NCBI GenBank assembly: GCA_051294905.1
Contig: CM119372.1
Coordinates: 1,116,001-1,180,000 of the forward strand
Direction of reading: 5' to 3'
Origin: Botryllus schlosseri
Taxonomy: Eukaryota
Length of the DNA: 64,000 nt
In this document: positions 19,309 to 42,000 of the stretch, piece by piece
How the letters are laid out: every line of letters starts with the position of its first letter
Position numbering within the stretch: position 1 is the stretch's first letter
The notes under the pieces: generated by a model
Database searches by the model: none
Told to the model about the DNA's origin: nothing
Seen by the model: the letters and a program-made list of their open reading frames with translations, nothing else
Position numbers and translations under genes: made by a program

Positions 19309-21919
19309 GACATAAAAGAGGAAACTAGAAATTGCCAAATTTATGTATTCGTTCCATTTCGGTCACGGCCTCGAAAAATTCAATGACTTTTTTACCTCGG
19401 AAATCAAAAGCTCATTAATAGTACAACCCACGCGAGCCTGTCCTGTCCAACTATCATGTGTGGAAACACAATGCTCTATCAAGAATACGCCTATGCCGGG
19501 CCACGACATATAGAACAGTATTTCGACAGGTGGTGCATGTCCGTCCAGTCCACATTCAAGTCCAGATACAAACTGTTTCTACTGAATGAAAACTAGTCAG
19601 CGCTCGAGATTTCCGGGCCAATATCTGACATATCCAACTTGCCTTCCGACATATGCCACCTTATTCTGGTCGCCTGCCTTTTTATGTACTAATATGACTT
19701 CTTATCCAGCGTACAGGCCAAGTCGTTTCGCCACTCCCTATCTTTCATTATATGGCAATTTTGTGGTGTTATTATCTCATGAAAATTTCAATAATACGAC
19801 TGAGTGACTGGTCCTGGAGATACCAATTTCAGGTCTACATATAGATGTTGGCGGCTTGATGCTGACAGTTGCATCATGAGTCTGTCAGCGTCAAACGATA
19901 ACTTTTATGAGAAATACATAAGAAAAAAGTGCTCACGTTGACAATCCGAGGATGCGAAAATCCGACCTGCTTCATAACAGATTGACAAGATCAGAATATA
20001 GCAATTCATCGCCGTCTAATATATCGTATGTAGGATTATAATAAAAGAAAATATCAAATGTCCTGTTCTATACGGCCACGAGACAAAAGATTCATCTCGA
20101 AATCAAAACATAAAACGGTATACCGATAGAGAATTGAAATTCCTCGCCGAGAAGCGTGAAACATTATCCCACATCATGAATAATGGTCGACGTCACGACC
20201 CCATTATAAGGTGTTCATGCCTTCCTTAACTAAATATCTGACTCCTGCTATCCGACTGGTAAACATACACACGGCGAGCAACCTTCGCCCAAAGATAGTT
20301 GGCGAGAATGAATTAAACTCCTAATCTTCAGTAGAGTCAAATTGTTATTACAATACAATGCATATGAAGACGACAGATTACAGATAACAGAATCGTGCAA
20401 AATGAAGAATTGGATACCTAATAGGCTACAAGGCCTAGATTATTATATTATAATTGTGGTTTTGCGTGATTCTTCGTCACCTGGTTGGTTTGTTGCGTCA
20501 CGTTGTTCCATTTTAGATTAACTTATTACGATTACGAGATACTACGAATTCCGTACGTGTGGTCGCTAGTTAGGACAGAGAAAATAGGTTTGATCAGCAG
20601 TTATATTCTCAACCTTCTTCATATCATTTCATCTGATGGGAACATTATCAACTTCAAATACCCTCATTTCAAAAAGTAATACTATTGTTGCTCGGAGTAA
20701 TAAATAAAAAATATATATAAAATGAAATCAGAATCTGCATTTGAGCGTGCGTTTCAAGTATAATTATGGACAAAGCTGATTCTGCTCTTCTGCCAACAAC
20801 ATGTCGTTTAATGTTCGGACACTGTAATGAAATCGATTGATATTTACAATGTCTCCAACTCTCCACTTCAGCGAACTCTTGCTTTTTGCGGTTCGTTTTC
20901 TTGTGTACCTTGAGTCGGCATTGCTGTACTTAGTACAGCAAATAACAAATAATGTTCTAACTCACTTCTTCAATAAAATTTCAAAATCGTCTTCTTTTGC
21001 TTGGTATCTACAAACAATTTTTACTGAATCAATACTAGTCAGCCCTCTACAGTTTACCGGACCACGACCTGGCAATACGATCTCGCCTTTCAGCACATGC
21101 CACTTTTTCACGTGTCCTTCTATATTATCTTATTTTACTTTTCATTCAGTGTGCAACCGTGCATGCCTTCGTTTTTTATATCGCCAAGGCCATGTGTCTG
21201 ATTTCGAAGACTACTCCAAGTCGTTTCGACACCTTCCTATCTTTCATTGCATCGCAGTCTTGTGGTGTATTGAAATGATGAAATTGTTAGCAATCAATTG
21301 AATGGAATAGAATCTCACGTGACTTTACAACCTTATCCCGTTCAACTAGTAGACTATATAGAAACAAGGGGAGTGGAACGTTTACTATAAACGGGCAAGA
21401 TAATTAAGGCTGGATGGGTGAAACCACGCGTCGCACGTTTGTACTATAGGACCGGAAACAATGATTCAAATACTTGCATCTGAACTGAGTATTAATTCTA
21501 ATGATTCGAGTACGGTATTGATAGTTGTTTTCTCCGAGTACTGAAATTATACGCTCCTTGTCACTAAGAATTAATTAATCAACGAGAATTATAGTTTCGA
21601 TACTATTTTTCAATTTGGAATGCTGTAAATTTCGATAGGTCAATCACAGCATACGGAAAATACAGTACAAAGCTACGCACGTTAGTAGAAATGAAATATC
21701 TCTGAAGTCTTGGTCAATCCACAGCATTGTATCAAAGTGCAATGAAGTAGCTGTGTGACCGAAAATGTGCCAAGTAGTAATAGACAGAGTATCGCCATGC
21801 GGACCAATGGGCTTAGAGTATTTAATCACGTGACATCTCTTAGCCAATCAGAACGCAGAACATTATGTGCGTGTTTCCAATACGAGAGAGGTTTTGGTTG
21901 TGTGAGAGATAGCATAGTT

Positions 21920-22489
21920 CCAGTTCAGTAACGCTGAGATATTATTACATCATTATTGCGTAAGTTGATTACCTTCATTATGATTGCGTATTGCAGTTGA
22001 AGCATGTCCAGTAATGATTACGTCATTATGATTGCGTAGTTGATGACCTTAGTTATTACGAGAGCGGCTTTGCTTGGTTCCAGTAACGCTGAGATATGAT
22101 TACGTCATTATTGCGTAAGTTGATCGCCTTATTTGTTATTGTAGTTGAACCAAGTGCAAGGCAATATATAACGTGTAATATTTATTACATGATTATTCGC
22201 TGTACGCTGTAGATCGAATATGTCTGAGATTACTGCTAATGATATATACGTCATAATGAATCGGATTGACCCGATAAACTGGTATAGGTTCGCACGTGAA
22301 AAACGTAAGTTGATCGCCTTATTTGTTATTGCAGTTGAACCAAGTGCAAGACAATATATATAACGTGTAATATTTATTACATGATTATTCGCTGTACGCT
22401 ATAGATTGAATATGTCCAAGATTACTGCTAATGATATATACGTCATAATGGATCGATTTGACCCGATGAACTGGTATAGGTTTGCACGT
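21920..22489. repeat. Subterminal tandem repeats (short ATTACGTCATTA/TTGCGTA units and a ~190-bp direct duplication); mirrored at ~39073-39642
   Basis: ~22114-22298 is repeated at ~22304-22489; TACGTCAT recurs several times. Confidence 0.8.
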
Positions 22490-22552
22490 CCCACGTGAAC
22501 ACTTGCTCATTGGAACTTAAGCCCAACGCCTTAACCACTCGGCCAACCCAGT
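22490..22552 (-). pseudogene. Truncated tRNA-Leu(UAA), left-arm copy
   Basis: Reverse complement of 39010-39072. Confidence 0.75.
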
Positions 22553-24046
22553 AGTCATTTACGGCATTTAGCCTCAGCTATGCAACTAGTATTTAGAGAT
22601 AGCAGTGATATCCACCGAGTCATTTACGTTTTTGATATTATAGAGTATACGATTGAATCGCTACGAGTAACGCACTGTTATCTAACTCATTGGGGAATAG
22701 ATTTTTCAATGGAGTATTTAGAGCTAGCAATGCTGTATGGGATCCACTAAGTTCGAACAGCTGCGTTTTGTTATTGTTGAGTATCGCACAGTTGTCATTA
22801 GGGAATAGATTTTCAACGGTTTAGATACGCTTAGTAGATAAACTGCGATTATGCCTTGATTAAGCCTGCCTCTTTCTGGATGTTTTGTGATGTGAAAAAT
22901 GGCTCTGAGATCATGGCTGAAAAGTACCCACTATCATTTGCCGGAAAAACTGTTGTCGTAAAATTTGGAGATAAACTTTACGATCCGTCAGTAGAAGCGT
23001 TGAATAGTCATGGTCGTACACTCTTAGCGAAAAGAGTGGTTATACACACCCCAAAAGGTGGTACACGAAAACAGAACTTACGTAACCCTGCCGGTGTATA
23101 TGACCAGATTCACCCCCTTCCTTGCGGTGTACATCGGATATTTCACCCTACCCATTAGAATTGATAGGGGTTCAATTTCAATATATACACCCTACTTGAT
23201 ATCCTGTATCTTCTTCCAAATGGCACACTATTGCAAATACACAGTCTTGATTGCATATATTCGATATCAATTGAACCATAATAACATAAAATGGAAACAT
23301 ATTTCGTGAAATAACAAAAACAGAGATCCCAGCGACGGAGAAAAAAATTCACTGAAAATACTGCTCGAAGAACATCGCCCATGTAATATCGGGAAGTCGC
23401 CTCCTCCAGGTTTTCTCAAAACACTCTTGTACGGCGAAGGTTGAGTCACTTTTTTCAGCAAGAACTTGTGGCATCATCCTGAAATCAAAATGCATATTCA
23501 CAACCCAATTAACAGGCACATATGTTAACATTCATAACTTAACGAAAGACCACATAAATACAAGCCGTTACGAAGTATATATATTTTCACAAAGTACTTA
23601 CAAAAAATCAGATGTTTCACTTGCTAAGGCATTGCAGCACAGACTGTGGCCCGATAGGGTGAACTTACCGCTATAGGAAACATATTCACACACGATCACT
23701 GTACGTGTGGGCAATTAGGCATCGACAAGATGGAAATTTATGGATAGTTTTCATGAAAACCGCCTGTAACAGGCAGACTTGGACAACTAGAAAACGTTCC
23801 CTTTTTCCAAATTAGATTGGAATTAGATTACAACTACAAGTTTTTTTTTCGAATTAGAGTAGAATTAAAATTATAGCTACACAGTTTGAAATTAGATTAA
23901 AATTATAATTCTAGCTAACAGTTTTTTTTTTCAAATTAGATTAGAATTAGAATTACTCAAATCGCGAAAAGTTGAACCAAACTCCGTTAATATCAAATCT
24001 TAGTTCATCTTATGAGCATGAGAATAGCAAATGTCTGTACACTGTA

Positions 24047-24696
24047 CAGTAGGGGTGTTCAAAAATGACTTTTTCTTCCAAATTCTATTGGCTACTTGAT
24101 AACATCGTTAGGTTACCTAATTGAAGCCTGCACACCAGATTTTATTCGATTCCAACCAGTAGCCGCATTGCTACAGGAGAAGAAAGTTTTTTATTTATTA
24201 TATGAAAATGAATAAAAAAAAGATTAAAAATTTTCTGTTCACCCCATTAAATTGTTAGGTTGTCTATAGAAACAATGCTCAACCGATTTGGCTCAATTCC
24301 AACCAGTGGAAGCGGAGTTATCGGCGTCGCAAAATTTTGGATTTGAATAAAATAGTATTTACGGTGACCGATTCTTTAATCATTTATTACAATTGTGCCC
24401 ACCGTAAATACTAATTTAGTCAAATCCAAATTTTTCGACTGGTTCGAATTGAGTCAAATTTGGTGGGCATCGTTTCTATAGACAACCTTACAATTTCGTG
24501 GGTGAACAGAAAATTTCGAATTTTTTTTACTAATTTTTAAATAATAAATAAAAAACTTTCTTCTCCTGTAGCAATGCGGCTACTGGTTGGAATTGAACCA
24601 AATTTGGTGTGTAGGCTTCAATTCGGTAATCTAACAATTTTATCAAGTAGCCAGTAGAATTTGAGAATAAGAAGTCATTTTTAACACCCCTACTGT
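24047..24696. mobile_element. Palindromic MITE within the arm (mirror ~36864-37513)
   Basis: CAGTAGGGGTGTT...AACACCCCTACTG flanked by TA, with long internal inverted arms. Confidence 0.7.
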
Positions 24697-25907
24697 ACAG
24701 CAAGCTTGGCTTGTTTCGCACTATACAGTTCTCCTGTAGCATTTCCAGGAAAACCAGACATTAGATTAGAATTAAAATTAGAGCATAGAAAGATTTCATA
24801 CATTCGATTAGAATTGGAATTAGAGCATAGACATTGCGCATTACGCAACGCTCAGCGTTGGATGAATATTCTGTTTAGAGATAAATTTGCAATAAAACGT
24901 ACATTTCGATCACATCATTTTTATGCTTGGGAGATATTATTAACTGTACATGTGTATTTGATTGTGTAAAATGTGTTATAGAAGTCAGTCGACGGAAGTG
25001 AATAGACAAGTCTGAACATGTATATTACAGCATGTTAGAGATAGATTGTGCAATAACCGTTTTCGCTGAGTCATAAAACAAAACAAAATGGGAAGTAGGA
25101 GTGATTTGCTAGTTTGACGCACGTGAAATCGATATCATTATAGCGTTCATTTCATAAAAAGTCAATTTTGACTTGCATAAATCATCCTCGAGACTACTCA
25201 AGGGTTAAATTACACTCAAAAGCTACGCAAGACGCTAATTTAGTATTCTAGAACTACTGAATTTTTTCGAAATCTACAACTAGAACTAGAATTACTCATT
25301 TTTCAATATCCGTAACTAAAACTAGCTTTTCCAAATTATAAAAACCTTGATCAATGTGTATGACAGCTTTGGGTGTAAATCAAGAAGTAAGCATAAAATA
25401 GGTGGCTACTATACTCGATAATGTTACATTGAATTCAACATCTTTATAACGAAACCGCTTGGAGATTGCGTTTAGCACAGTGCGATATCGCTCAAATATT
25501 CCATTAGCATCTCATCGTAAGGAGTCAGACTCGAGTCACGATTTTCTGATAACGTTCATTGTAATTTTGAAATCTGTGGTTAACAACACTTTAATATTTT
25601 CAAATCCAAATCCTGTTCCTGCGGGAATCTTATCGGATATATTCGCATTGGGCATTACGCAACGTTCAGCGTTGGATGAATATTCTGTTTAGAGATAAAT
25701 TTGTAATAAAACGTACATTTCGACCACATCATTTTTATGCTTGAGAGATATTATTAACTGCACATGTGTATTTGATTGTGTAAAATGTGTTATAAAAGTC
25801 AGTCGACGGAAGTGAATAAACAAGTCTGATGTACACCTACAATCTACATGACTATACATTATGCTTAAATAATTATACAATTGAATAGTATATTCATATT
25901 GAAATGA

Positions 25908-25941
25908 ACCCGAATATTTTCGGCTGACACTCGTCAGGGGT
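25908..25941 (-). ncRNA. Minimal hammerhead ribozyme motif, left arm
   Basis: Mirror of 35619-35652. Confidence 0.65.
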
Positions 25942-26426
25942 AATCGTCAGCAACTAGTAGAGAATTGGAACGAACATTGTATATCAACAATCGCATCACA
26001 AAATAGGTACCAATAGCTGTTGGGATCAATAACAGTTCAAACAGGGATCCGAATACGCTTCCGAATATACCTTCGACTGTTATTTCCGATGCATTAGCTT
26101 GCGAATGTAATCTAATATCAGGTTGTTTGTCAGCCTTAAATTCAGTGACGTAAATATTCTTGTTTTGACACCGCTGTCTAAATGTCATAAATTACCCCAC
26201 TCGCCTCACGTGCATCCACCAAACAATACCTTCGCTAATTAGTATTAGTATTGTTCCACGCATTAGCTCGCAAATGTAGTCTAATATTAGGTGTTTTGTC
26301 AGCCTTGACGTTTCACAATATCGGAGTGAATATTAGCGTTATAATTCATTAAGTTGTAGTAGGCAACTGTAATAGCATCTGTATTGCATCCGGTTTCTAT
26401 GCATCGGATATCGAGGGCTCAGTTGG

Positions 26427-27004
26427 ACTATAGATGACTAACCTACGGATAGATACGCAAGTCGCGTCGTTACGCTCCGGCAAGCAGTTACACTTGTTGC
26501 TGAGCAATCCAAAAGCAGCATAATTGGAGGAGGTATAGCTTGCGGCCCGAGGGCTGAAATGTAATGGAACTGGTCTTAATCGAGAGCTACTGCCTCACTG
26601 ATTCCGAAAATACAAATTAAAATCGTGCCGGGATATGGAACCACCTCAAAACAGCCCTCAAAGTCTGAAAATCGGCATTGTTCCAACAATGGCACCACCG
26701 CAACAGGATGAACATAACAATGGCCAATTTCGTCAAGCGATTGTTCAGAACAATGCCGATTTTCAGACTTTGAGGGATGGTTTGACATGGTTCCATTTCC
26801 TGACAAGATTTTAATTTGTATTCTCAGAATCAGTGCGACAGTAGCTCTCGATTAAGACCAATTTCAATAAATTTCACCCCTCAGGTCGCAAGTTGTGACA
26901 CCACCAATTATGCTGCTTTTAGATTGCTGAGCAATAAGTGTAACTGCTTGCCGGAGCGTAACGACGGGACTTGCGTATCTATCCGTAGGTTAGTAATCTA
27001 TAGT
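26427..27004. mobile_element. Palindromic MITE with ~270-bp arms (mirror ~34556-35133)
   Basis: ACTATAGATGACTAACCTACGGATAGATACGCAAG...CTTGCGTATCTATCCGTAGGTTAGTAATCTATAGT. Confidence 0.7.
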
Positions 27005-27204
27005 TTGACCACACCTGCTCTAAACCATAACCATAACAACTTGAGTAAGTACTGTCACTAGGCAAACCCTAGCAGAGTTATGCTCAAATTATATCAAATA
27101 TTGCATGGAATATGGCAAATGAACACGCTAAGTATTATCAAGTGAAGGAAAACGAACGCCTAATTCCCTCTAGATACATATTTATTCGGAAAATATCCCC
27201 TTAC

Positions 27205-29514
27205 CGGGTGAGTACAGTTGCTTTCTCAAGGTCTTCCTATCTTCCCCACTCAAGCGCGGTAAGACTAGTTTGACTTCGCGGCATTCAGGATTATATCTCA
27301 CGAAGCTCTGAATGGAATTCACGTATTCCACGTCGACTATCGTTCTGTTGCTATCACTGAGGTCGATTGCCTTTAGCTGTTCATTGAATAATAGGCGATT
27401 TAGATCAATTTAAAAAATACAGAAACGAACTGCATCGCTACATCGGGATCTACTATTGAGCAGAAAGATCTTACTGTAGCGCATCGCTTTCCCGTCTCTT
27501 CGCTCAGATTCCTGATTTGCATGGAAAGCATCTTGCAATTACTCAGATTAAATTCTTCCACACGGGAATTGCACAGGACTTTAGTTAGTGTTTTGTAGCA
27601 GGATGAAATGCCAGGATTTCTACTTAAATCCAGCGAATGCAGCTAAAACATGGTGTAATGTTCAAATATTTTACGAGACTACAAACGACTCGGCACCTGT
27701 AATAGATTAGTCATAATATTATTTATCAACAGTTGAGCAATTTTTGCGATTTCTGCTCCTAATAGCAAAACTGATGCAACACCGAAGACAATAATGAAGC
27801 TCGAAAGGTTATTGAAGAAACCATCTAAACTAGCTTTAAAATGAATGAACGATTGAAAAAACCTCTTGCTTAGAAGCAGTGATAGTATTTATTTTCAGAT
27901 GTGATCATAAACACTTTATTGATGATAAAAGTTCTATCGATCGATGAAATGTCATGCTTGAATATGACTAAAACTCACATAAGCATGACACTGTGATTGA
28001 TTATTTCAGTTAGAAAACATAACGGATCTTGTTCAAATGATCACCTCATGAATTCCGAGACCTTTATTTAATGAGATTAGTGAGTCTTCGTCCAATTCGC
28101 AAGCTGAAAGTCGAACGTTTTTCGTGTTATGCTTTCTTACAAAGCATCCAACTTCTTTCAAACCTGTCGGTTCCATATCCGTATTATAACTCAGATCAAG
28201 GTTTTCGACCTACAAATACAGTAATTTATTTCAAAATGACACACAAAACTATAGAAACGAGTGAGTACCTCGATAGAAGCAAAACTTTCAAAAGCGCGCA
28301 TTTCCTCGGGTGTAAGGTCACACCCCTTCATGATAAGAGTAACCGCTTTGTCTTTACAAAGTAAGGCAGGCAGCGCGGTCATACACTCTTCATCCAGCTG
28401 ATTGTAGCTGATGTCAAGATATTGGAGCTGAACAAATATAGGAAACTGTCAATTTACGATCAGCATTGATCAGATATAAAACATTTCAAACTGATAACAG
28501 AAAAAATGTTGATTAGCCACTCACGTCATAATATACGCGAAATGTGCTAAGATTAAACTAGAATTTGCTCTCTCCATCCATCTCCGCACAATCGCTCATA
28601 CAGAATGTGATCATTAACGACTGAACCCAGCAATAATCGCGCATACCTTACTGTTTTTGAGCTGTAGAGCAACGAAATCTTTTGACTGCAAATGCGAGTT
28701 CACAAGTGACAAATAGGTTAGATCGTTCGAAATAATAGTCGCGAGTTGCGTAAAGTTAATGTTTTCCCCGTAGCTGAGATTGAGGTTTCGTAATTTCACC
28801 TATAGGAATGAGGTATTAGGAAATCTCACTTCGAGAGGTTCTATACTAGATTAGCGCCTAGCTTTTCCCATCATCAATACCTGATGCCGCCTGATAAGTT
28901 GATCCAAAATGATTAGAAAATCTTCGGATCCATCACTTTCTTCCAGATTGAGCTCCGTCGAACCACACTCCTTCATCAACTCGCATATTACTGGGAGGAG
29001 TTTTTCAATGTCGTCGTGTGCTGTAACGCTGAGTTTTCTTATTTCGACCTGAACGAGCGCAAAACTTAACGCATAAAACGCTAAATGAGCTATGAACAGT
29101 TTAACACTGATCAACTTTGGCTATAGCCTATCTAATAAGGCTATTGAGACTGATTCCTATACAAGTAGCAATTGAGCATTGTTCGCTACGTTACCTTCAA
29201 TTCTCGCCTTAACACATTAGTAATAGGGAACAACGCGATTACGATGAAAGTTTTTTTAAAGTCGTATCTGAATATTATACAGATAACATACTTATATTGA
29301 ACGTGAATTTATAATGATCAGTGACTACGAGTGGAATGTGTGAAGGCGTTTACCACAAATTCAAATCCACGAATTTTATCCAGTAGTATCTTTACGAGGT
29401 TTTCATTGAGATCGCATTGACGAAATTCTAACTCATACACGCGACATTGCTGAATAAGACCATTCGCGATATTATGTATATCCAATTCAGTCGTAGTTTG
29501 GTGAAAGAGCCCAT
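27205..29514 (-). pseudogene. 5'-truncated spliced LRR gene segment, left-arm copy
   Basis: Exons 29514-29354, 29048-28881, 28799-28647, 28427-28269, 28209-28045, 27642-27475, 27376-27205; mirror of the right-arm exons. Confidence 0.75.
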
Positions 29515-31310
29515 GATCATGATCATGATGAAGTGAATATTCCTTATGGGCTCTTTCACCAAACTACGACTGAATTGGATATACATAATATCGCGAATGG
29601 TCTTATTCAGCAATGTCGCGTGTATGAGTTAGAATTTCGTCAATGCGATCTCAATGAAAACCTCGTAAAGATACTACTGGATAAAATTCGTGGATTTGAA
29701 TTTGTGGTAAACGCCTTCACACATTCCACTCGTAGTCACTGATCATTATAAATTCACGTTCAATATAAGTATGTTATCTGTATAATATTCAGATCAGACA
29801 TGGGGTAATCGCGATTAGTAATCGTAATCGATTACGACGATTACAGCATTTTGAAGTAATCGTAATCGCAATCGATTACATTCGAAAAAAATCCGAAGTA
29901 ATCGTAATCGTAATCGACTACTTCCCATATTTAATCGATTTTTTTGTGAAAGAACGATTACTTTTTGTTTGTACAAGGACTATGACATAAACTGAATATT
30001 CGTGAACAAGAATGAGATAATATACCAGGTCAGCGGTAGCACAAACGTCTGTTTTCAAACGCCACTGACTCATTATTACGTCAGAAGTATTAGCTCCGCT
30101 CGTCATTGCGTATGAAGTATCCAAACATAGTAAACAGACATGCGACGGACATTAGTAGTGTGATTTTAAGAACAACTCCCGTGGTGTATATCAGGTTATC
30201 AATACACTAGAGAAGTCCCTACCTCGCAGCAGGATATTGATCACCACTCTGCCTATAGTTTCAAATAGTAACTTATGTATTGATGTTTGGTTGTGCTTAG
30301 TTAAACGCAGTTTACCGTTGCTGCTTGGCGAGCAGGAGGCCTACGTACGCACGTGCACCTCACAAAGATTCGGAATTTTGTATACTCGTCGAATAAAACA
30401 TTGCAGTTTCCACAACGAAGCATTACAAATAAACAGCTGCTGATATATATCATAACCGAGCCGTGCTTAGCCGTTTCTCGTAATGGCAGCTCGCTCTATA
30501 TGTATTAAGTTGAAGGCAGAATTTTTATGTTCACTATATCTTATTCTCATATAACTACTTGAAACGGGCGTAAATCGTTATTTCACAGTTCATTACTCAG
30601 CATTTGGACCTGCCGCCATAACCATCCGCTTATATAGCTTGACATGTTAGCGTGGGTTTTAGCTAGAATCAGCAATTCAGCCAATTCAGCCACAACAGCA
30701 ATTCGTCCCCCTGTCCAACCGTTGGTCAATTTTCAAAACTGAATTTCGTCAATAATATTGGTAATTGCATTATATTAATATTCATTTATAACCTCTCTCA
30801 GCCCCGAGTGTCAGATTTACCTCTAGAGCTGGGGCATGTAATTCATAATCATAGCATCTGGTATGTTGTTATAATTACTTTATTGTATGTTGTTAATTCG
30901 CGACCTCCAGTCTGTTGTATAATCAAAAGATATTGTACTCGCCCAAACGTAGCAGACTAAAAGAATATCTCTCGTGAGACGCACATAAAAATTGTCATGA
31001 CTTTATTCCTTTGTGGGTGCGCCGGGTGGCATTTGCATTTTGGGCCCAGATTGGAAGGACAGGAGTAGGCCTACCCACGCCCACCCAGCGCGACTATTGC
31101 CAATGGACGAATACCCTAAGTTTCGGCCATGTTATTTCTTTGGTATCACATCCCGTGGAGTTGCGTGTTGGCCGAAGCTGCATATGTCTTTTGGTGTGTT
31201 GTGGGATCGTGGCGCGGTAATAACCGGATCCGAAACGCCTGTTCCCATAAAATAGCCCATGTATGTTTTTCTTGAGGGGAAGAGGTATGCATTCCAGCTA
31301 TCTACTGGAG

Positions 31311-31784
31311 CAGGGGTCACCAACCGTTTTGAAACAAAAAGCTACTTATTGTGTAGTGTGTAGGCCTACTGATTATTGCGACGACCGATGAATTACAACT
31401 TAGTCCCGCCGTTTATCCGGGTTCAGTTGGATTTCTTTATTTAGAGTAAGACAATCAGAGCACTGGGCCGGGTTTCCGCCCCTTACCAAGAACAAAAAAG
31501 CTCACTCGCCGGGACTCACACCAGCTATTCCGGGTTCAGTTGCGTTGCTGCAGTGCGCGCCGAAGCGCCAATCTCCGCGTCGAGACTCGGGAATATTAAC
31601 TATAGATTCGCGTGGGCGAAGACAAGCAATGCCCCGAGTGACTGCGATCGTATGTTCCTTGGGGTCGGCCGACCCATGTTCAACTGTTGCTCATATGAAA
31701 CCAGCTTCAACTTTCAAATCTCTTATTTGGATATTTGCTACAGCGACCGCGGGCGACTCATTTGGTCCGCGTTGGTGACCCCTG
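31311..31784. mobile_element. hAT-type MITE carrying 28S rDNA fragments
   Basis: TIR CAGGGGTCACCAAC...GTTGGTGACCCCTG; imperfect TSD TACTGGAG/TACTAGAT. Confidence 0.75.
31395..31748 (-). pseudogene. Degraded 28S rRNA fragments (two non-contiguous LSU segments)
   Basis: TCCCGCCGTTTA...TCAGAGCACTGGGC and GACCCATGTTCAACTGTTGCTCATATGAAACC...ATATTTGCTAC match the antisense of conserved eukaryotic LSU core sequence (recognised from memory). Confidence 0.8.
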
Positions 31785-34700
31785 TACTAGATACTTTTGA
31801 ATCGCAAAGCTCGAAGAACTTTTTCAAAAATTAATTAAATTCTCGAAAATACTCTATAATTTATGTTGGTTTACGAAAAACTGTTGAGTCCCCTTCGAGC
31901 ACGCTCCCCACCCTATTAAGGAACTTGGGATGCGGCAGGTAAAGACCTGGCAATAATGCAAATCGTTGGGTGCAATAAATCATCCACTATAAAGTTGGGC
32001 AATTGGTATATTATGACGTGATAAGCAAATGACGCATGATGTATGAAGACAGTTGATATCTCATTAGGCCTTTTCATCGCAATCCTTGTATTGTCTACCA
32101 ACATATCATTTAAGAAGCAAAACAAATGTAATCGTGGGTAATCGTGATTACTTTTCCAATGTAATCGTAATCGTAATCGACTACTTCCTGATTTTGCTGT
32201 AATCGTAATCGTAATCGTAATCGCGTGATTCCGAAGTAATCGTAATCGCAATCGATTACATTCATGAAGTAATCACCCCATGTCTGATTCAGATACGACT
32301 TTAAAAAAACTTTCATCGTAATCGCGTTGTTCCCTATTACTAATGTGTTAAGGCGAGAATTGAAGGTAACGTAGCGAACAATGCTCAATTGCTACTTGTG
32401 TAGGAATCAGTCTCAATAGCCTTATTAGATAGGCTATAGCCAAAGTTGATCAGTGTTAAACTGTTCATAGCTCATTTAGCGTTTTATGCGTTAAGTTTTG
32501 CGCTCGTTCAGGTCGAAATAAGAAAACTCAGCGTTACAGCACACGACGACATTGAAAAACTCCTCCCAGTAATATGCGAGTTGATGAAGGAGTGTGGTTC
32601 GACGGAGCTCAATCTGGAAGAAAGTGATGGATCCGAAGATTTTCTAATCATTTTGGATCAACTTATCAGGCGGCATCAGGTATTGATGATGGGAAAAGCT
32701 AGGCGCTAATCTAGTATAGAACCTCTCGAAGTGAGATTTCCTAATACCTCATTCCTATAGGTGAAATTACGAAACCTCAATCTCAGCTACGGGGAAAACA
32801 TTAACTTTACGCAACTCGCGACTATTATTTCGAACGATCTAACCTATTTGTCACTTGTGAACTCGCATTTGCAGTCAAAAGATTTCGTTGCTCTACAGCT
32901 CAAAAACAGTAAGGTATGCGCGATTATTGCTGGGTTCAGTCGTTAATGATCACATTCTGTATGAGCGATTGTGCGGAGATGGATGGAGAGAGCAAATTCT
33001 AGTTTAATCTTAGCACATTTCGCGTATATTATGACGTGAGTGGCTAATCAACATTTTTTCTGTTATCAGTTTGAAATGTTTTATATCTGATCAATGCTGA
33101 TCGTAAATTGACAGTTTCCTATATTTGTTCAGCTCCAATATCTTGACATCAGCTACAATCAGCTGGATGAAGAGTGTATGACCGCGCTGCCTGCCTTACT
33201 TTGTAAAGACAAAGCGGTTACTCTTATCATGAAGGGGTGTGACCTTACACCCGAGGAAATGCGCGCTTTTGAAAGTTTTGCTTCTATCGAGGTACTCACT
33301 CGTTTCTATAGTTTTGTGTGTCATTTTGAAATAAATTACTGTATTTGTAGGTCGAAAACCTTGATCTGAGTTATAATACGGATATGGAACCGACAGGTTT
33401 GAAAGAAGTTGGATGCTTTGTAAGAAAGCATAACACGAAAAACGTTCGACTTTCAGCTTGCGAATTGGACGAAGACTCACTAATCTCATTAAATAAAGGT
33501 CTCGGAATTCATGAGGTGATCATTTGAACAAGATCCGTTATGTTTTCTAACTGAAATAATCAATCACAGTGTCATGCTTATGTGAGTTTTAGTCATATTC
33601 AAGCATGACATTTCATCGATCGATAGAACTTTTATCATCAATAAAGTGTTTATGATCACATCTGAAAATAAATACTATCACTGCTTCTAAGCAAGAGGTT
33701 TTTTCAATCGTTCATTCATTTTAAAGCTAGTTTAGATGGTTTCTTCAATAACCTTTCGAGCTTCATTATTGTCTTCGGTGTTGCATCAGTTTTGCTATTA
33801 GGAGCAGAAATCGCAAAAATTGCTCAACTGTTGATAAATAATATTATGACTAATCTATTACAGGTGCCGAGTCGTTTGTAGTCTCGTAAAATATTTGAAC
33901 ATTACACCATGTTTTAGCTGCATTCGCTGGATTTAAGTAGAAATCCTGGCATTTCATCCTGCTACAAAACACTAACTAAAGTCCTGTGCAATTCCCGTGT
34001 GGAAGAATTTAATCTGAGTAATTGCAAGATGCTTTCCATGCAAATCAGGAATCTGAGCGAAGAGACGGGAAAGCGATGCGCTACAGTAAGATCTTTCTGC
34101 TTAATAGTAGATCCCGATGTAGCGATGCAGTTCGTTTCTGTATTTTTTAAATTGATCTAAATCGCCTATTATTCAATGAACAGCTAAAGGCAATCGACCT
34201 CAGTGATAGCAACAGAACGATAGTCGACGTGGAATACGTGAATTCCATTCAGAGCTTCGTGAGATATAATCCTGAATGCCGCGAAGTCAAACTAGTCTTA
34301 CCGCGCTTGAGTGGGGAAGATAGGAAGACCTTGAGAAAGCAACTGTACTCACCCGGTAAGGGGATATTTTCCGAATAAATATGTATCTAGAGGGAATTAG
34401 GCGTTCGTTTTCCTTCACTTGATAATACTTAGCGTGTTCATTTGCCATATTCCATGCAATATTTGATATAATTTGAGCATAACTCTGCTAGGGTTTGCCT
34501 AGTGACAGTACTTACTCAAGTTGTTATGGTTATGGTTTAGAGCAGGTGTGGTCAAACTATAGATTACTAACCTACGGATAGATACGCAAGTCCCGTCGTT
34601 ACGCTCCGGCAAGCAGTTACACTTATTGCTCAGCAATCTAAAAGCAGCATAATTGGTGGTGTCACAACTTGCGACCTGAGGGGTGAAATTTATTGAAATT

Positions 34701-35618
34701 GGTCTTAATCGAGAGCTACTGTCGCACTGATTCTGAGAATACAAATTAAAATCTTGTCAGGAAATGGAACCATGTCAAACCATCCCTCAAAGTCTGAAAA
34801 TCGGCATTGTTCTGAACAATCGCTTGACGAAATTGGCCATTGTTATGTTCATCCTGTTGCGGTGGTGCCATTGTTGGAACAATGCCGATTTTCAGACTTT
34901 GAGGGCTGTTTTGAGGTGGTTCCATATCCCGGCACGATTTTAATTTGTATTTTCGGAATCAGTGAGGCAGTAGCTCTCGATTAAGACCAGTTCCATTACA
35001 TTTCAGCCCTCGGGCCGCAAGCTATACCTCCTCCAATTATGCTGCTTTTGGATTGCTCAGCAACAAGTGTAACTGCTTGCCGGAGCGTAACGACGCGACT
35101 TGCGTATCTATCCGTAGGTTAGTCATCTATAGTCCAACTGAGCCCTCGATATCCGATGCATAGAAACCGGATGCAATACAGGTGCTATTACAGTTGCCTA
35201 CTACAACTTAATGAATTATAACGCTAATATTCACTCCGCTATTGTGGAACGTCAAGGCTGACAAAACACCTAATATTAGACTACATTTGCGAGCTAATGC
35301 GTGGAACAATACTAATACTAATTAGCGAAGGTATTGTTTGGTGGATGCACGTGAGGCGAGTGGGGTAATTTATGACATTTAGACAGCGGTGTCAAAACAA
35401 GAATATTTACGTCACTGAATTTAAGGCTGACAAACAACCTGATATTAGATTACATTCGCAAGCTAATGCATCGGAAATAACAGTCGAAGGTATATTCGGA
35501 AGCGTATTCGGATCCCTGTTTGAACTGTTATTGATCCCAACAGCTATTGGTACCTATTTTGTGATGCGATTGTTGATATACAATGTTCGTTCCAATTCTC
35601 TACTAGTTGCTGACGATT

Positions 35619-35652
35619 ACCCCTGACGAGTGTCAGCCGAAAATATTCGGGT
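35619..35652 (+). ncRNA. Minimal type I hammerhead ribozyme motif (Penelope-associated)
   Basis: ACCC-CTGACGA-GTGTCAGCC-GAAA-ATAT-TC-GGGT: stem I ACCC/GGGT, intact core, palindromic stem III, UUC cleavage triplet. Confidence 0.65.
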
Positions 35653-38600
35653 TCATTTCAATATGAATATACTATTCAATTGTATAATTATTTAAGCATA
35701 ATGTATAGTCATGTAGATTGTAGGTGTACATCAGACTTGTTTATTCACTTCCGTCGACTGACTTTTATAACACATTTTACACAATCAAATACACATGTGC
35801 AGTTAATAATATCTCTCAAGCATAAAAATGATGTGGTCGAAATGTACGTTTTATTACAAATTTATCTCTAAACAGAATATTCATCCAACGCTGAACGTTG
35901 CGTAATGCCCAATGCGAATATATCCGATAAGATTCCCGCAGGAACAGGATTTGGATTTGAAAATATTAAAGTGTTGTTAACCACAGATTTCAAAATTGCA
36001 ATGAACGTTATCAGAAAATCGTGACTCGAGTCTGACTCCTTACGATGAGATGCTAATGGAATATTTGAGCGATATCGCACTGTGCTAAACGCAATCTCCA
36101 AGCGGTTTCGTTATAAAGATGTTGAATTCAATGTAACATTATCGAGTATAGTAGCCACCTATTTTATGCTTACTTCTTGATTTACACCCAAAGCTGTCAT
36201 ACACATTGATCAAGGTTTTTATAATTTGGAAAAGCTAGTTTTAGTTACGGATATTGAAAAATGAGTAATTCTAGTTCTAGTTGTAGATTTCGAAAAAATT
36301 CAGTAGTTCTAGAATACTAAATTAGCGTCTTGCGTAGCTTTTGAGTGTAATTTAACCCTTGAGTAGTCTCGAGGATGATTTATGCAAGTCAAAATTGACT
36401 TTTTATGAAATGAACGCTATAATGATATCGATTTCACGTGCGTCAAACTAGCAAATCACTCCTACTTCCCATTTTGTTTTGTTTTATGACTCAGCGAAAA
36501 CGGTTATTGCACAATCTATCTCTAACATGCTGTAATATACATGTTCAGACTTGTCTATTCACTTCCGTCGACTGACTTCTATAACACATTTTACACAATC
36601 AAATACACATGTACAGTTAATAATATCTCCCAAGCATAAAAATGATGTGATCGAAATGTACGTTTTATTGCAAATTTATCTCTAAACAGAATATTCATCC
36701 AACGCTGAGCGTTGCGTAATGCGCAATGTCTATGCTCTAATTCCAATTCTAATCGAATGTATGAAATCTTTCTATGCTCTAATTTTAATTCTAATCTAAT
36801 GTCTGGTTTTCCTGGAAATGCTACAGGAGAACTGTATAGTGCGAAACAAGCCAAGCTTGCTGTACAGTAGGGGTGTTAAAAATGACTTCTTATTCTCAAA
36901 TTCTACTGGCTACTTGATAAAATTGTTAGATTACCGAATTGAAGCCTACACACCAAATTTGGTTCAATTCCAACCAGTAGCTGCATTGCTACAGGAGAAG
37001 AAAGTTTTTTATTTATTATTTAAAAATTAGTAAAAAAAATTCGAAATTTTCTGTTCACCCACGAAATTGTAAGGTTGTCTATAGAAACGATGCCCACCAA
37101 ATTTGACTCAATTCGAACCAGTCGAAAAATTTGGATTTGACTAAATTAGTATTTACGGTGGGCACAATGGTAATAAATGATTAAAGAATCGGTCACCGTA
37201 AATACTATTTTATTCAAATCCAAAATTTTGCGACGCCGATAACTCCGCTTCCACTGGTTGGAATTGAGCCAAATCGGTTGAGCATTGTTTCTATAGACAA
37301 CCTAACAATTTAATGGGGTGAACAGAAAATTTTTAATCTTTTTTTTATTCATTTTCATATAATAAATAAAAAACTTTCTTCTCCTGTAGCAATGCGGCTA
37401 CTGGTTGGAATCGAATAAAATCTGGTGTGCAGGCTTCAATTAGGTAACCTAACGATGTTATCAAGTAGCCAATAGAATTTGGAAGAAAAAGTCATTTTTG
37501 AACACCCCTACTGTACAGTGTACAGACATTTGCTATTCTCATGCTCATAAGATGAACTAAGATTTGATATTAACGGAGTTTGGTTCAACTTTTCGCGATT
37601 TGAGTAATTCTAATTCTAATCTAATTTGAAAAAAAAAAAACTGTTAGCTAGAATTATAATTTTAATCTAATTTCAAACTGTGTAGCTATAATTTTAATTC
37701 TACTCTAATTCGAAAAAAAAACTTGTAGTTGTAATCTAATTCCAATCTAATTTGGAAAAAGGGAACGTTTTCTAGTTGTCCAAGTCTGCCTGTTACAGGC
37801 GGTTTTCATGAAAACTATCCATAAATTTCCATCTTGTCGATGCCTAATTGCCCACACGTACAGTGATCGTGTGTGAATATGTTTCCTATAGCGGTAAGTT
37901 CACCCTATCGGGCCACAGTCTGTGCTGCAATGCCTTAGCAAGTGAAACATCTGATTTTTTGTAAGTACTTTGTGAAAATATATATACTTCGTAACGGCTT
38001 CTATTTATGTGGTCTTTCGTTAAGTTATGCATGTTAACATATGTGCCTGTTAATTGGGTTGTGAATATGCATTTTGATTTCAGGATGATGCCACAAGTTC
38101 TTGCTGAAGAAAGTGACTCAACCTTCGCCGTACAAGAGTGTTTTGAGAAAACCTGGAGGAGGCGACTTCCCGATATTACATGGGCGATGTTCTTCGAGCA
38201 GTATTTTCAGTGAATTTTTTTCTCCGTCGCTGGGATCTCTGTTTTTGTTATTTCACGAAATATGTTTCCATTTTATGTTATTATGGTTCAATTGATATCG
38301 AATATATGCAATCAAGACTGTGTATTTGCAATAGTGTGCCATTTGGAAGAAGATACAGGATATCAGGTAGGGTGTATATATTGAAATTGAACCCCTATCA
38401 ATTCTAATGGGTAGGGTGAAATATCCGATGTACACCGCAAGGAAGGGGGTGAATCTGGTCATATACACCGGCAGGGTTACGTAAGTTCTGTTTTCGTGTA
38501 CCACCTTTTGGGGTGTGTATAACCACTCTTTTCGCTAAGAGTGTACGACCATGACTATTCAACGCTTCTACTGACGGATCGTAAAGTTTATCTCCAAATT

Positions 38601-39009
38601 TTACGACAACAGTTTTTCCGGCAAATGATAGTGGGTACTTTTCAGCCATGATCTCAGAGCCATTTTTCACATCACAAAACATCCAGAAAGAGGCAGGCTT
38701 AATCAAGGCATAATCGCAGTTTATCTACTAAGCGTATCTAAACCGTTGAAAATCTATTCCCTAATGACAACTGTGCGATACTCAACAATAACAAAACGCA
38801 GCTGTTCGAACTTAGTGGATCCCATACAGCATTGCTAGCTCTAAATACTCCATTGAAAAATCTATTCCCCAATGAGTTAGATAACAGTGCGTTACTCGTA
38901 GCGATTCAATCGTATACTCTATAATATCAAAAACGTAAATGACTCGGTGGATATCACTGCTATCTCTAAATACTAGTTGCATAGCTGAGGCTAAATGCCG
39001 TAAATGACT

Positions 39010-39072
39010 ACTGGGTTGGCCGAGTGGTTAAGGCGTTGGGCTTAAGTTCCAATGAGCAAGTGTTCACGTGGG
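39010..39072 (+). pseudogene. Truncated tRNA-Leu(UAA), right-arm copy
   Basis: ACTGGGTTGGCCGAGTGGTTAAGGCGTTGGGCTTAAGTTCCAATGAGCAAGTGTTCACGTGGG: D-arm, TAA anticodon arm and long variable arm present; T-loop and 3' acceptor strand missing. Confidence 0.75.
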
Positions 39073-42000
39073 ACGTGCAAACCTATACCAGTTCATCGGG
39101 TCAAATCGATCCATTATGACGTATATATCATTAGCAGTAATCTTGGACATATTCAATCTATAGCGTACAGCGAATAATCATGTAATAAATATTACACGTT
39201 ATATATATTGTCTTGCACTTGGTTCAACTGCAATAACAAATAAGGCGATCAACTTACGTTTTTCACGTGCGAACCTATACCAGTTTATCGGGTCAATCCG
39301 ATTCATTATGACGTATATATCATTAGCAGTAATCTCAGACATATTCGATCTACAGCGTACAGCGAATAATCATGTAATAAATATTACACGTTATATATTG
39401 CCTTGCACTTGGTTCAACTACAATAACAAATAAGGCGATCAACTTACGCAATAATGACGTAATCATATCTCAGCGTTACTGGAACCAAGCAAAGCCGCTC
39501 TCGTAATAACTAAGGTCATCAACTACGCAATCATAATGACGTAATCATTACTGGACATGCTTCAACTGCAATACGCAATCATAATGAAGGTAATCAACTT
39601 ACGCAATAATGATGTAATAATATCTCAGCGTTACTGAACTGGAACTATGCTATCTCTCACACAACCAAAACCTCTCTCGTATTGGAAACACGCACATAAT
39701 GTTCTGCGTTCTGATTGGCTAAGAGATGTCACGTGATTAAATACTCTAAGCCCATTGGTCCGCATGGCGATACTCTGTCTATTACTACTGTGCCAACTTA
39801 TCTTTATGTGATGTAGAACTGCGAACTGGCATTATGTTCTTTATGGTCGCATGAAATGGTACATATTTGAACTTTCCGCATGAGTGATACTCGAATGCTC
39901 GACTCGACTCGAAGCCCAATAGTCGGTTCAGAATAGAATATCTCATGTAGGCTCGATTCACCCGACCTTAAGTATATAGGCCTACATCGCAGGATTTTTG
40001 AATGGTTGTAGGCGCAAAACCCGATCCGGAAATAGTCGAGGATTGTTTTCGGAATAGGTAACCCAATACCACCCTTCAGAGAATCCAGCGTAAGCATGCA
40101 ATAAGTTTTCGCGAAGCGTGGATTTCTTTTAATGATATCAAACAAATCTGGTCAACTTTCCGGCCCAGCTCCCGAAATACCCGCCGGAGCGTTGCTTCAG
40201 TGTTGATTTACTGTATCCAAGTCGATTTTGCCATATTTTTAACCAAACTCGAAAAAACAGGACAAAATCTCAAAAAAGAGAACATTTGGGCGTCCTCCGA
40301 GGATACTTTCAAAAAAGTCAAAAAAAGAGGACAAATCCTCTTAAGAGGACGCATGGTAACCCTACCTAATATTCCATGTTCATATCTCTACATCTCATCC
40401 AATTCCGAATGATGATCGCATGAAAACTCTCTCGGATTTATCCGAATTTCAACTTTTCTCCTGTTCTTTTACATGAAAGAGTCGACGACTTTCAGCGGTC
40501 AGACTTGGAAAACTAGACAATTCTCGTTGTCTTTTAGAGCGAAATCCAGGTTTCCTTGCTCTAACTGTAATTCTAATCTAAATTCTGGTTTTCCTGAAAA
40601 TGCTGCATGCGAACCGTACAGTGCGAGATGAGCAAAATCTTGCTGTACAGACATTTGACATTCTCATGCTTTAAGAACTGAACCTATACTAATTTCCCAG
40701 TTTTAATGCATTAAATAATTCAAATTCTAACCTAATTTGGAAAAACTGTGTAGCTATAATTTCAATTGTAATCCAATTTATAAAAAACTGCGTAGCTATA
40801 TTATTCTAATTTTAATCTAATTTATAAAAACTTAAAACTATCCAGTGGTTCATTTCTGTTAGCGCCCGCGCTGTGAGCTGAGTTAAGTATTCCTGAATAA
40901 TGGCTCACGCCACTTTTGAGAGGCCTTGATTGGACCTGCGAAGATTGCGAGAATAAAGCATTGGTTTCCGCATATATGCTGTCGCGCGACCGTGTAGGTT
41001 GGTAATCCTATAGGATGAGATATGACTTCGTTACTACAATTTCGTTCTGCATCCTCACTCGATTTACTTGATGCATACTGCGGAACTAAATGAACTCGCA
41101 TTCTGAACGCTATAAATTAGTTAATAGCCAAATTGCCGAGCCTGTTGTACCGTGAGAGCTAAATGACTAACTCCGCGCAATAGCTATAGTCGAATCGTGT
41201 AACTCAACTCCAATTGTTACCTTACGTGTCTGTTAGTTTGGGACACGCGACATGTTGTAATCAGATACGGGGAGGCTTTCAAACACGACAAAGACTAGTA
41301 CGCAAATCAGTTAATTGGATCAGCGAGGACATCGCGCTCATTCCGCACAAGTAATAACACCGGTGTGATTATAATATTCCGATTCCAATGGCGGCCTGCG
41401 TGAAAATAATGCCCCGCCATGAACGTCATATGCCACAACGTATCCTGCAACATAGCACTAGCGACATTTTTCAACTTTTTTTTGTTGCTTTTCTGGAACG
41501 AATAATTGTGTTAATCTAATTTGACGATGCTGATTCCGGATTTGCCGTCAGAACTCACTCATCACATCACAACTTTTCGCCAAAATCGAATAAAAATTTT
41601 ACTCAAAAAACGGCTGTATTAAGTGCCCTTATGCCCGTTTACGTTAAATACGCCGTAATTAAATACACCACAATTAAATACGCCGTAGCGTGACGGTTTG
41701 CACAAGTCAGAATGTCCGAGTTGTTAATGGAGTTGCTGCCGAAAGGCAGTATAGCGGTAAAAACACAAAACACGATGCCCGCATGCAAGACTTCCGCAAA
41801 TGGATCCACCAGATTTCTTGTCGTGGTTTTAACAATGTATCATATTGTTGCAAAGCAATTTAGTAAACAGGACATTCTGGTGTTTTACGATAGAATCTTC
41901 CTCGGTAATATGTCAAAGGCGGGCGGGTAGTGCATTAGCCTCTCCTTTTCTGTGGCAAATACCGGTAATGCTTGCACCCGAAGGAGCAGTTGCAAATCTT

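Follow-up and report, generated by a model that had tools for sequence, protein, structure and literature searches.

A giant palindrome with Polinton/Maverick ends in the genome of Botryllus schlosseri and the multi-copy family to which it belongs

Introduction

How a nearly perfect palindrome with the ends of a Polinton/Maverick element comes to lie in an animal chromosome, and what its arms carry, are the questions raised by a locus of Botryllus schlosseri. The locus lies within a stretch of 64,000 nucleotides (NCBI GenBank assembly GCA_051294905.1, contig CM119372.1, positions 1,116,001 to 1,180,000 of the forward strand), referred to here as the window. The element occupies window positions 21773-39789, spans ~18 kb, and runs from AGTAGT to ACTACT. 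An original prediction, made from the letters of the window alone, held that one Polinton end and ~7 kb of adjacent host DNA had been copied, folded back at 29515-29545, and integrated in trans as a one-off gene-capture vector. The analysis reported here gives a different answer on the origin. The element is very probably a non-autonomous palindromic derivative of a resident Polinton/Maverick, inherited from an old palindromic lineage.

The replication and spread of Polintons in animals are still argued mostly from gene content. The family described here keeps one viral end and a central hairpin at near-helper length, a natural means of mapping the cis-acting elements needed for copying and insertion, and perhaps for packaging. 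The terminus variants of a subfamily equal, in at least one case, those of polymerase-bearing copies. The family is also a test bed for the survival time of perfect palindromes in an animal genome, and it is taken to show that Polinton viruses spawn long-lived parasitic copies of themselves.

Architecture of the palindrome and its insertion site

The element is composed of three pairs of inverted arm segments, 21773-23931 with 37631-39789 (2,159 nt), 23922-29273 with 32287-37638 (5,352 nt), and 29261-29514 with 29546-29799 (254 nt), all collinear around a 31-nt centre (Table 1). Aligned with MAFFT, the 7.7-kb arms show 12 differences in 7,498 compared sites. The left junction reads aaaatGTGCCA followed directly by AGTAGTAATAGA, and the right junction reads TCTATTACTACT followed by GTGCCAactt, with the right end being the reverse complement of the left. 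The original prediction had described a near-perfect palindrome once the segment 29795-32286 is removed, with AGTAGT/ACTACT ends flanked by GTGCCA, and both descriptions stand. The removed segment (2,492 bp) has inverted ends, CAGACATGGGG and CCCCATGTCTG, and an 8-bp duplication, ATTCAGAT, at 29787-29794 and 32287-32294. A reading-frame scan found no long frame with a recognizable transposase in it, and only the 8-bp duplication marks it as presumably hAT-like.

The flanks of the element are the two halves of an interspersed repeat. A genome search with the left-flank repeat gave 2,707 first-look candidates, of which the best 40 were scored and are 75-79% identical. In two paralogous copies of the repeat (L048 and L050), the left and right flanks of the window are contiguous and hold one copy of the 6-mer. 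The element therefore split an older repeat, as had been claimed, and the 6-bp duplication is real. A 568-nt contig from another sample under the same species label follows the left flank to exactly 21773 with 6 differences in 191 nt and then departs into sequence absent from the stretch compared. This is the appearance expected of an empty-site allele, which the contig may represent.

No polymerase, integrase, or capsid reading frames are present in the arms. Stop-to-stop frames in the left arm reach at most 106-107 residues (frames of 21000-32400). Pfam searches with 55 arm frames of two sister copies returned sub-threshold matches only, and no capsid module (double-jelly-roll capsid protein, packaging ATPase, and protease) was found among these frames. 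The predicted lack of frames for pPolB (the protein-primed polymerase), integrase, and capsid is thus borne out by the frame scan and by the arm searches, which were empty above threshold.

Table 1. Features of the palindromic element and its flanks, in window coordinates.
Feature	Position	Strand	Basis
Left half of split older interspersed repeat	21473..21766		Genome matches
Left target-site duplication GTGCCA	21767..21772		Junction sequence; single in paralogues
Left arm, 7,742 bp	21773..29514	+	Inverted-repeat search, MAFFT
Polinton-type terminal region, first letters AGTAGTAATAGA	21773..22489	+	Repeat search, genome matches
Unrelated ~1.8-kb nested repeat, mirrored in right arm	23016..24831	+	Genome matches
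Apex-proximal 3.1-kb core, leucine-rich-repeat (LRR)-like frames reading outward from centre	26415..29514	-	Frames, genome matches
LRR-like frames	27400-27642, 28194-28448, 28851-29120, 29318-29563	-	Reading-frame scan
31-nt unpaired centre, deletion leftover	29515..29545		Alignment to C10
Inner piece of right arm	29546..29794	-	Inverted-repeat search
Later non-autonomous insertion, one arm only	29795..32286		Inverted ends and 8-bp duplication
Outer part of right arm, end ...ACTACT	32287..39789	-	Inverted-repeat search, MAFFT
Right target-site duplication GTGCCA	39790..39795		Junction sequence
Right half of split interspersed repeat	39796..39900		Contiguous flanks in paralogues

Polinton termini and an autonomous helper

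The terminal region 21773-22489 has 52 matches in the genome. A degenerate pattern of its first 59 nt matches 65 times in the 495-Mb genome and not once in the reversed control. By our count, the 65 matches resolve into 17 singles and 24 +/- pairs that lie 10.7-28 kb apart. Twelve of the pairs are palindromic, with the apex motif or mirrored cargo inside, nine are polymerase-bearing, and three are unclassified. The nine polymerase-bearing pairs are 17.8-18.0 kb apart and enclose a match to a polymerase frame of 1,314 residues. Eleven matches to this frame are stop-free and at least 98% identical.

One of these autonomous elements, termed the helper, was read (C2:2211650-2229478, 17,829 bp). 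It has a perfect target-site duplication, TACGTA, and a 251-bp terminal repeat. The 1,314-residue frame contains DANSLY, KLCGNSAFG, and YLEGDTDS, which we take to be motifs A, B, and C of family-B polymerases. The protein Atlas score of this frame against PF03175 clusters is 0.97, and Pfam and PDB sequence searches do not recognize it. A 350-residue frame encodes an rve integrase with a chromodomain (E 2e-13). A 443-residue frame has a faint Pfam match to a double-jelly-roll-like domain (E 0.15) and an Atlas score of 0.98 against clusters in which 14-24% of members have such a domain. At the right end of the helper, a 106-residue frame encodes a Death domain (E 8.5e-11).

The ends of the window element are Polinton/Maverick ends. 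The window-type terminus, with first letters AGTAGTAATAGA, bounds an 18.0-kb element at C1:6088352-6106337 that has the duplication CCTGGG and a 326-bp terminal repeat. The ends of that element are 95% identical to those of the window element over 209 bp, and its polymerase frame, which has one internal TGA, shares 91% identity with the other type. The original prediction had staked its Polinton assignment on the terminus matching elements that encode pPolB and integrase, and such elements were found.

Both arms derive from one end of the Polinton, the end that holds the Death-domain gene, as had been supposed. Palindromic copy C3 matches 540 bp of the right end of the helper, as against only the 251-bp repeat of the left end. 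The sequence beyond the 251-bp repeat is the upstream region and the start of the Death-domain frame. The window arm contains two ~190-bp tandem units (22164-22297 and 22356-22489), each with the start of a Death-domain-like frame. The arms also share a ~300-bp segment that is located 2.7-3.0 kb from the right end of the helper. Since the element has no genes of its own, it must be moved in trans, as the original prediction also held, and the shared termini point to the autonomous elements as the likely source of the machinery.

The terminus itself varies among copies. Its positions 13-45 resemble a mosaic of a few alternative blocks that are combined differently from copy to copy. Palindromic copies at C3:33643268 and C1:3169799 have first 59 nt identical to those of the polymerase-bearing copies at C2:14480542 and C15:11059686. 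Besides the family of the helper, the genome holds two or more other Polinton families, whose polymerases share 65-67% and 60-61% identity with the helper polymerase (10 and 13 loci among the matches listed), and most of these polymerase matches have one stop.

A family of giant palindromes

The window element is not alone. At least 12 other loci hold palindromes of the same kind, 15-17 kb in length. The first seven elements compared, namely the window element and six that were fetched, are all palindromes with arm segments 99.1-99.97% identical. Copy C16 (28 kb) and an older copy, D1, are giant palindromes as well. Four of the first seven copies have perfect target-site duplications, two match at 5 of 6 positions, and one shows no match; the duplication of C16 is also perfect. 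Without private insertions, the copies are ~14.9-16.9 kb long by our reading of the coordinates, or 83-95% of the helper, which agrees with the predicted near-normal Polinton length.

The whole arm of the window element is common to sister copies C10, C1b, and C6b at ~98% identity, and the D1 core is 87.7% identical to that of C10. The lineage has thus persisted through at least 12% sequence divergence. The palindrome of the window is inherited from this multi-copy family, and the single copy-back event at this locus that had been proposed is not upheld. A deletion or insertion breaks the centre in nearly half of the copies examined.

Several further arrangements were seen among the palindromes of this genome. 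Copy C16 spans C16:3640251-3668306 and has the duplication GGCCTT, a 12.1-kb direct partial duplication that is 99.97% identical, and two apex hairpins in the same orientation. A second-order snap-back was considered for C16 and rejected, because the apex loops have the same orientation and the repeat is direct and 99.97% identical, which points to a partial tandem duplication in place. Loci C8:4623681 and C2:17023736 have two apexes each. Eight -/+ pairs, in which the match is confined to positions 201-532 of the terminal region and has reversed polarity, are all 99.5-99.9% palindromes that belong to other families, and their mirror symmetry extends past the point where the families stop matching. 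Giant palindromes seem to be common in this genome.

The private one-arm insertions of the window element, D1, C6b, and C6a lie 250, 348, 636, and 945 bp from the centre. Of ~7 private insertions, 4 thus lie within 1 kb of the centre, and the window element has a central deletion in addition; this post hoc count fits the known instability of perfect palindromes. One sister copy has a private 3.7-kb insertion in one arm, whose frames of 211, 443, and 151 residues (C1:39556606-39558940) match no Pfam family.

The apex hairpin and the central deletion

An apex hairpin of ~90 bp is present in all seven copies with an intact centre (C10, C6b, C6a, C1b, C3, C1a, and C16, where it occurs twice). It is composed of a stem of ~28 bp (...AAACATAAAAATATTTCCGCGCC) and an unpaired loop of 30-40 nt rich in CCTAA units. 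Near the centre, copies with the two unrelated cargo types, A (as in the window element) and B (as in C3), show no similarity except this module, which is absent from the helper at C2:2211650-2229478. A 23-nt motif of the loop has 23 matches in the genome versus 0 in the control. Nineteen of them lie within 9 kb of a matched terminus; of the others, two are second apexes in rearranged loci and two have no nearby terminus, one of these lying amid mirrored cargo.

The loop resembles telomeric DNA. The loop of D1 is different and again holds several TTAGG units. The presence of 3-4 TTAGG units in 31-45 nt is estimated to be far above chance. A TTAGGG array extends from C1:41837632 onward, near the contig end, so TTAGGG is taken as the host telomere unit. 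The telomere-like loop suggests that the closed end may have formed on telomerase-type repeats. Rfam searches with the central hairpin gave only sub-threshold matches of microRNA type. The occurrence of two loop orientations among copies was considered as evidence of hairpin replication and set aside, because with identical arms they reflect only the orientation of insertion.

The window element has lost this apex. Compared with C10, the left arm ends 341 bp short of the family centre and the right arm starts again 315 bp beyond it, with window-element position 7742 aligned to C10 position 7559 and position 7749 to C10 position 8215. The 31-nt loop is made of 26 unmatched nt of the right arm and a GATCAT duplication. 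The 655-bp loss, which took the apex with it, thus postdates the palindrome. The loop that had been predicted as the fold-back point is the remnant of this central deletion.

Passenger DNA in the arms

Between the Polinton terminus and the centre, the arms hold passenger DNA that belongs to the family. A genome search with 22490-29514 gave only palindromic copies and dispersed copies of the 1.8-kb nested repeat among the best 35 of 16,285 candidates, which were the ones scored; a non-palindromic donor is not among them. A search with the B-type cargo gave one scored candidate. The 1.8-kb repeat (cargo-query positions 527-2342) has five dispersed single matches at 91-93% and occupies the same position in each arm of the four sister copies (the window element, C10, C1b, and C6b). 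The apex-proximal 3.1-kb core has matches of 96-98% at ~12 further loci beyond the three sister copies, mostly as mirror pairs. An older subfamily shares the cargo at ~88%, always as mirror pairs.

The frames of the core weakly resemble leucine-rich-repeat proteins, with a match to a solved LRR protein (E 3.3e-5) and a sub-threshold match to Pfam LRR_1. One 85-residue frame has 149 genome matches that reach down to ~46% identity, with full-length mirror pairs at 64% or more. About 55 of these matches, counted by hand, form -/+ mirror pairs 2-15 kb apart on many chromosomes, and suggest that older subfamilies account for some tens of palindromic loci. In the comparison of C10 with D1, the ratio of nonsynonymous to synonymous differences (pN/pS) of the LRR-like frames is 0.29-0.68, compared with 0.2-1.3 for off-frame controls (summed, ~0.53 versus ~0.69), and gives no sign of coding constraint.

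The cargo is therefore taken for long-standing passenger DNA, which may once have belonged to a host LRR gene, rather than for a working gene that was captured. The original prediction had described it as neighbouring host DNA freshly captured, a reading that the mirror pairs in sister and older copies do not support, and had called for a donor locus, of which the scored candidates hold none. The description of the element as a gene-capture vector likewise found no evidence in its frames, which show neither a Pfam family above threshold nor a sign of constraint.

Likeness of the arms

The arms of a copy evolve in concert and resemble each other far more than those of its sisters. They differ by 0.08-0.16% within a copy versus 1.0-3.2% between sister copies. 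Among the variable sites in six arms of three copies, 235 of 261 are mirrored, and 25 of the 26 that are not are singletons. Among four copies, 14 mirrored sites are shared by two copies, all backing one split, and the rest are private to one copy (33, 37, 63, and 120 sites). Large changes are mirrored too, namely the nested repeat, swapped terminus types, and cargo modules.

Gene conversion from arm to arm in the chromosome is the more likely cause of this likeness and has about an even chance of being the right one. The star-like tree, whose private mirrored branches are long (33-120 sites per copy), favours it. So do the imperfect target-site duplications of C10 and C1b, for which the chance is estimated at ~0.002 if the copies are as young as their arms suggest. 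The arms of C16 differ by 0.29%, as against 0.03% for its later in-place duplication, and homogenization in place is therefore not fast.

A credible second candidate, with somewhat less than an even chance, is that the arms are made alike by hairpin replication. One arm would be inherited, and snap-back or a turn-round at the apex would remake both arms identical at each insertion, with old copies vanishing fast since long palindromes are unstable. The slowness with which C16 loses its arm differences speaks for it, as do the presence of the 1.8-kb repeat in both arms of four copies and the symmetrical swapping of terminus types and cargo modules between subfamilies. Apex and termini are the sole parts common to cargo types A and B, as expected of cis-acting signals, and all 18 palindromes examined have arm identities of 99.1-99.97%, whatever their subfamily. 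Divergence is also somewhat lower near the apex (p = 0.009). Against this stand the imperfect duplications in 2 of 7 copies, with the same small estimated chance if the copies are as young as the arms imply, and the star-like tree with its long private branches, which typically indicate decay after insertion. Among the assembled DNA and contigs, no extrachromosomal form was seen.

Proposed origin and its rivals

The following history would account for the window element. A truncated linear Polinton genome may long ago have folded back, and protein-primed replication through the closed end would have given a two-ended palindrome; we infer that one Polinton end folded back at the telomere-like hairpin. 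The lineage, of 15-17 kb elements in several subfamilies, keeps the Polinton termini and the apex hairpin, whose loop is a degenerate array of telomere units, and the DNA between them is exchangeable. Each arm consists of the Polinton end with the Death-domain gene (terminal repeat and end-specific sequence), followed by ~7 kb of apparently non-coding passenger DNA. The palindrome was inherited from this lineage and not made at the present locus. Its insertion, and presumably its copying, would have been the work of the ~18-kb relatives with the same termini, through their integrase and protein-primed polymerase, and the insertion made the GTGCCA duplication. The central deletion and the 2.5-kb insertion near the centre followed, both breaking the perfect palindrome.

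A more specific form of this history is tentative and on the whole doubtful. It holds that the family consists of heritable snap-back satellites, each a hairpin of ~7.5-8 kb with one protein-primed end and a closed end begun as telomerase TTAGG(G) on a broken genome. Replication around the loop would give the 15-17 kb palindrome, which is inserted by the helper integrase, and capsid would hold its length. If this were true, the genome would hold a fossil record of defective-interfering DNA genomes and direct evidence that animal Polintons use protein-primed strand displacement and are packaged.

Some observations weigh against the history proposed for the family or against parts of it. No termini of D1 were found in C4:20652600-20655800, and its link to a Polinton is therefore putative. 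Three terminus pairs (C1:3286665, C1:8147269, and C4:4489486) are the unclassified ones, and the packaging ATPase and protease of the helper were not recognized among its frames. Mobilization in trans is argued from shared termini only. Among the Logan contigs listed for the probable source run, none bridges a junction of the window copy, the contigs being too short and the region too repetitive for this. The lower divergence near the apex speaks for changes that arose in the mobile lineage, and so do the open polymerase frames of the helpers, which differ by 1-2%, so that divergence of that size is possible in active lineages. Both causes of arm likeness fit the mirrored changes, which may have arisen before or after insertion.

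It is highly improbable that the host keeps the palindromic loci as hairpin-RNA genes that make small RNAs against Polintons. The arms do hold a Polinton end and the start of a Death-domain gene, and read-through transcription would yield a perfect hairpin. One bulk RNA run, ~6% of which was read, leaves the arms almost uncovered except over nested repeats, and the copies lie with target duplications at scattered sites, like ordinary insertions.

More improbable still is the one-off copy-back of the original prediction, in which a Polinton end and ~7 kb of adjacent host DNA fold at 29515-29545 to make a gene-capture vector. That both arms carry the same Polinton end is what it expects, and the LRR-like frames have weaker unpaired relatives in the genome at 46-64% amino-acid identity, which fits an ancient host origin. 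However, three sister copies share the whole arm, the family apex lies 341 bp beyond the window loop, so that the loop is a deletion scar, no donor is among the scored matches, and the LRR-like frames are without constraint.

An assembly or long-read fold-back artefact, which near-identical arms and the lack of a listed contig across a junction might suggest, can practically be dismissed given two ends that run into the halves of one flanking repeat with a 6-bp duplication, 12 arm differences and an insertion private to one arm, and many other loci of the same architecture with target duplications of their own.

Relation to known systems

The closest relatives of the family are autonomous Polintons/Mavericks (polintoviruses, adintovirus-like), with which it shares AG...CT termini, the 6-bp duplication, and terminal sequence. 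In contrast to them, the window element is gene-less, without a pPolB or rve integrase of its own, both of which the helper has. Its inverted repeats, 7.7 kb long as compared with 251-326 bp in autonomous copies, take up the entire element. Its two ends come from one genome end, and the central hairpin of the family is absent in the autonomous copy.

Incomplete particles of adenovirus contain snap-back defective genomes of a protein-primed linear replicon. Hairpin and palindromic derivatives of the protein-primed yeast plasmid pGKL1 were reportedly described by Kikuchi et al. in 1985. The family resembles such genomes in having one end duplicated in inverted form around a short unique turn, in its presumed dependence on a helper, and in its length of 83-95% of the helper. 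Unlike them, it is integrated in the germ line, transposes with target duplications, and has persisted through at least 12% divergence. Snap-back genomes arise de novo with variable turn-arounds, whereas the family has one conserved apex, the differing centre of the window element being a deletion.

Foldback transposons, such as Drosophila FB and sea-urchin TU, are likewise mobile and consist almost wholly of two long inverted arms. The arms of FB are short tandem repeats, and FB belongs to another superfamily. The window arms differ from these in being complex sequence, in which only the two ~190-bp subterminal units are repeated, and in having Polinton ends and a 6-bp duplication. Palindromes of primate sex chromosomes are not mobile and have arms kept alike by arm-to-arm gene conversion. 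The family is like them in that its arms are 99.7-99.9% identical while the locus diverges, and unlike them in having transposon ends, target duplications, and dozens of dispersed copies.

Two systems of Tetrahymena offer likenesses to the apex. The ribosomal DNA (rDNA) palindrome forms at short inverted repeats beside a break, and the family similarly has a short stem and a ~30-nt unpaired centre at the axis of a giant palindrome; in contrast to rDNA, nothing in the family shows involvement of a break or of telomerase. Tel-1/Tlr elements have telomeric repeats at their ends and are thus a further case of telomere-type repeats tied to a Polinton-related element. In the family, such units form the central loop and not the ends.

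No description of giant palindromic Polinton derivatives was found in open full-text papers and preprints, a search that lay outside subscription journals and repeat libraries. We regard the family as a palindromic, non-autonomous satellite of a Polinton that the searched literature had not yet described. According to a 2026 preprint, protist virophages have terminal palindromes of 52 nt, for which priming by a hairpin is proposed.

Additional observations

Next to the proteins of replication and insertion, the helper encodes a Bcl-2 family protein (E 4.8e-21), a ubiquitin-conjugating E2 (E 1.6e-47), and a BIR/IAP domain protein (E 7.6e-11), which with the Death-domain frame make four genes of cell death or ubiquitin. 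In the window element, ARAGORN called no transfer RNA (tRNA). By eye, 22490-22560 and its mirror 39005-39075 look like the 5' two-thirds of a tRNA, with D-arm and anticodon-arm motifs, for which neither ARAGORN nor Rfam made a call.

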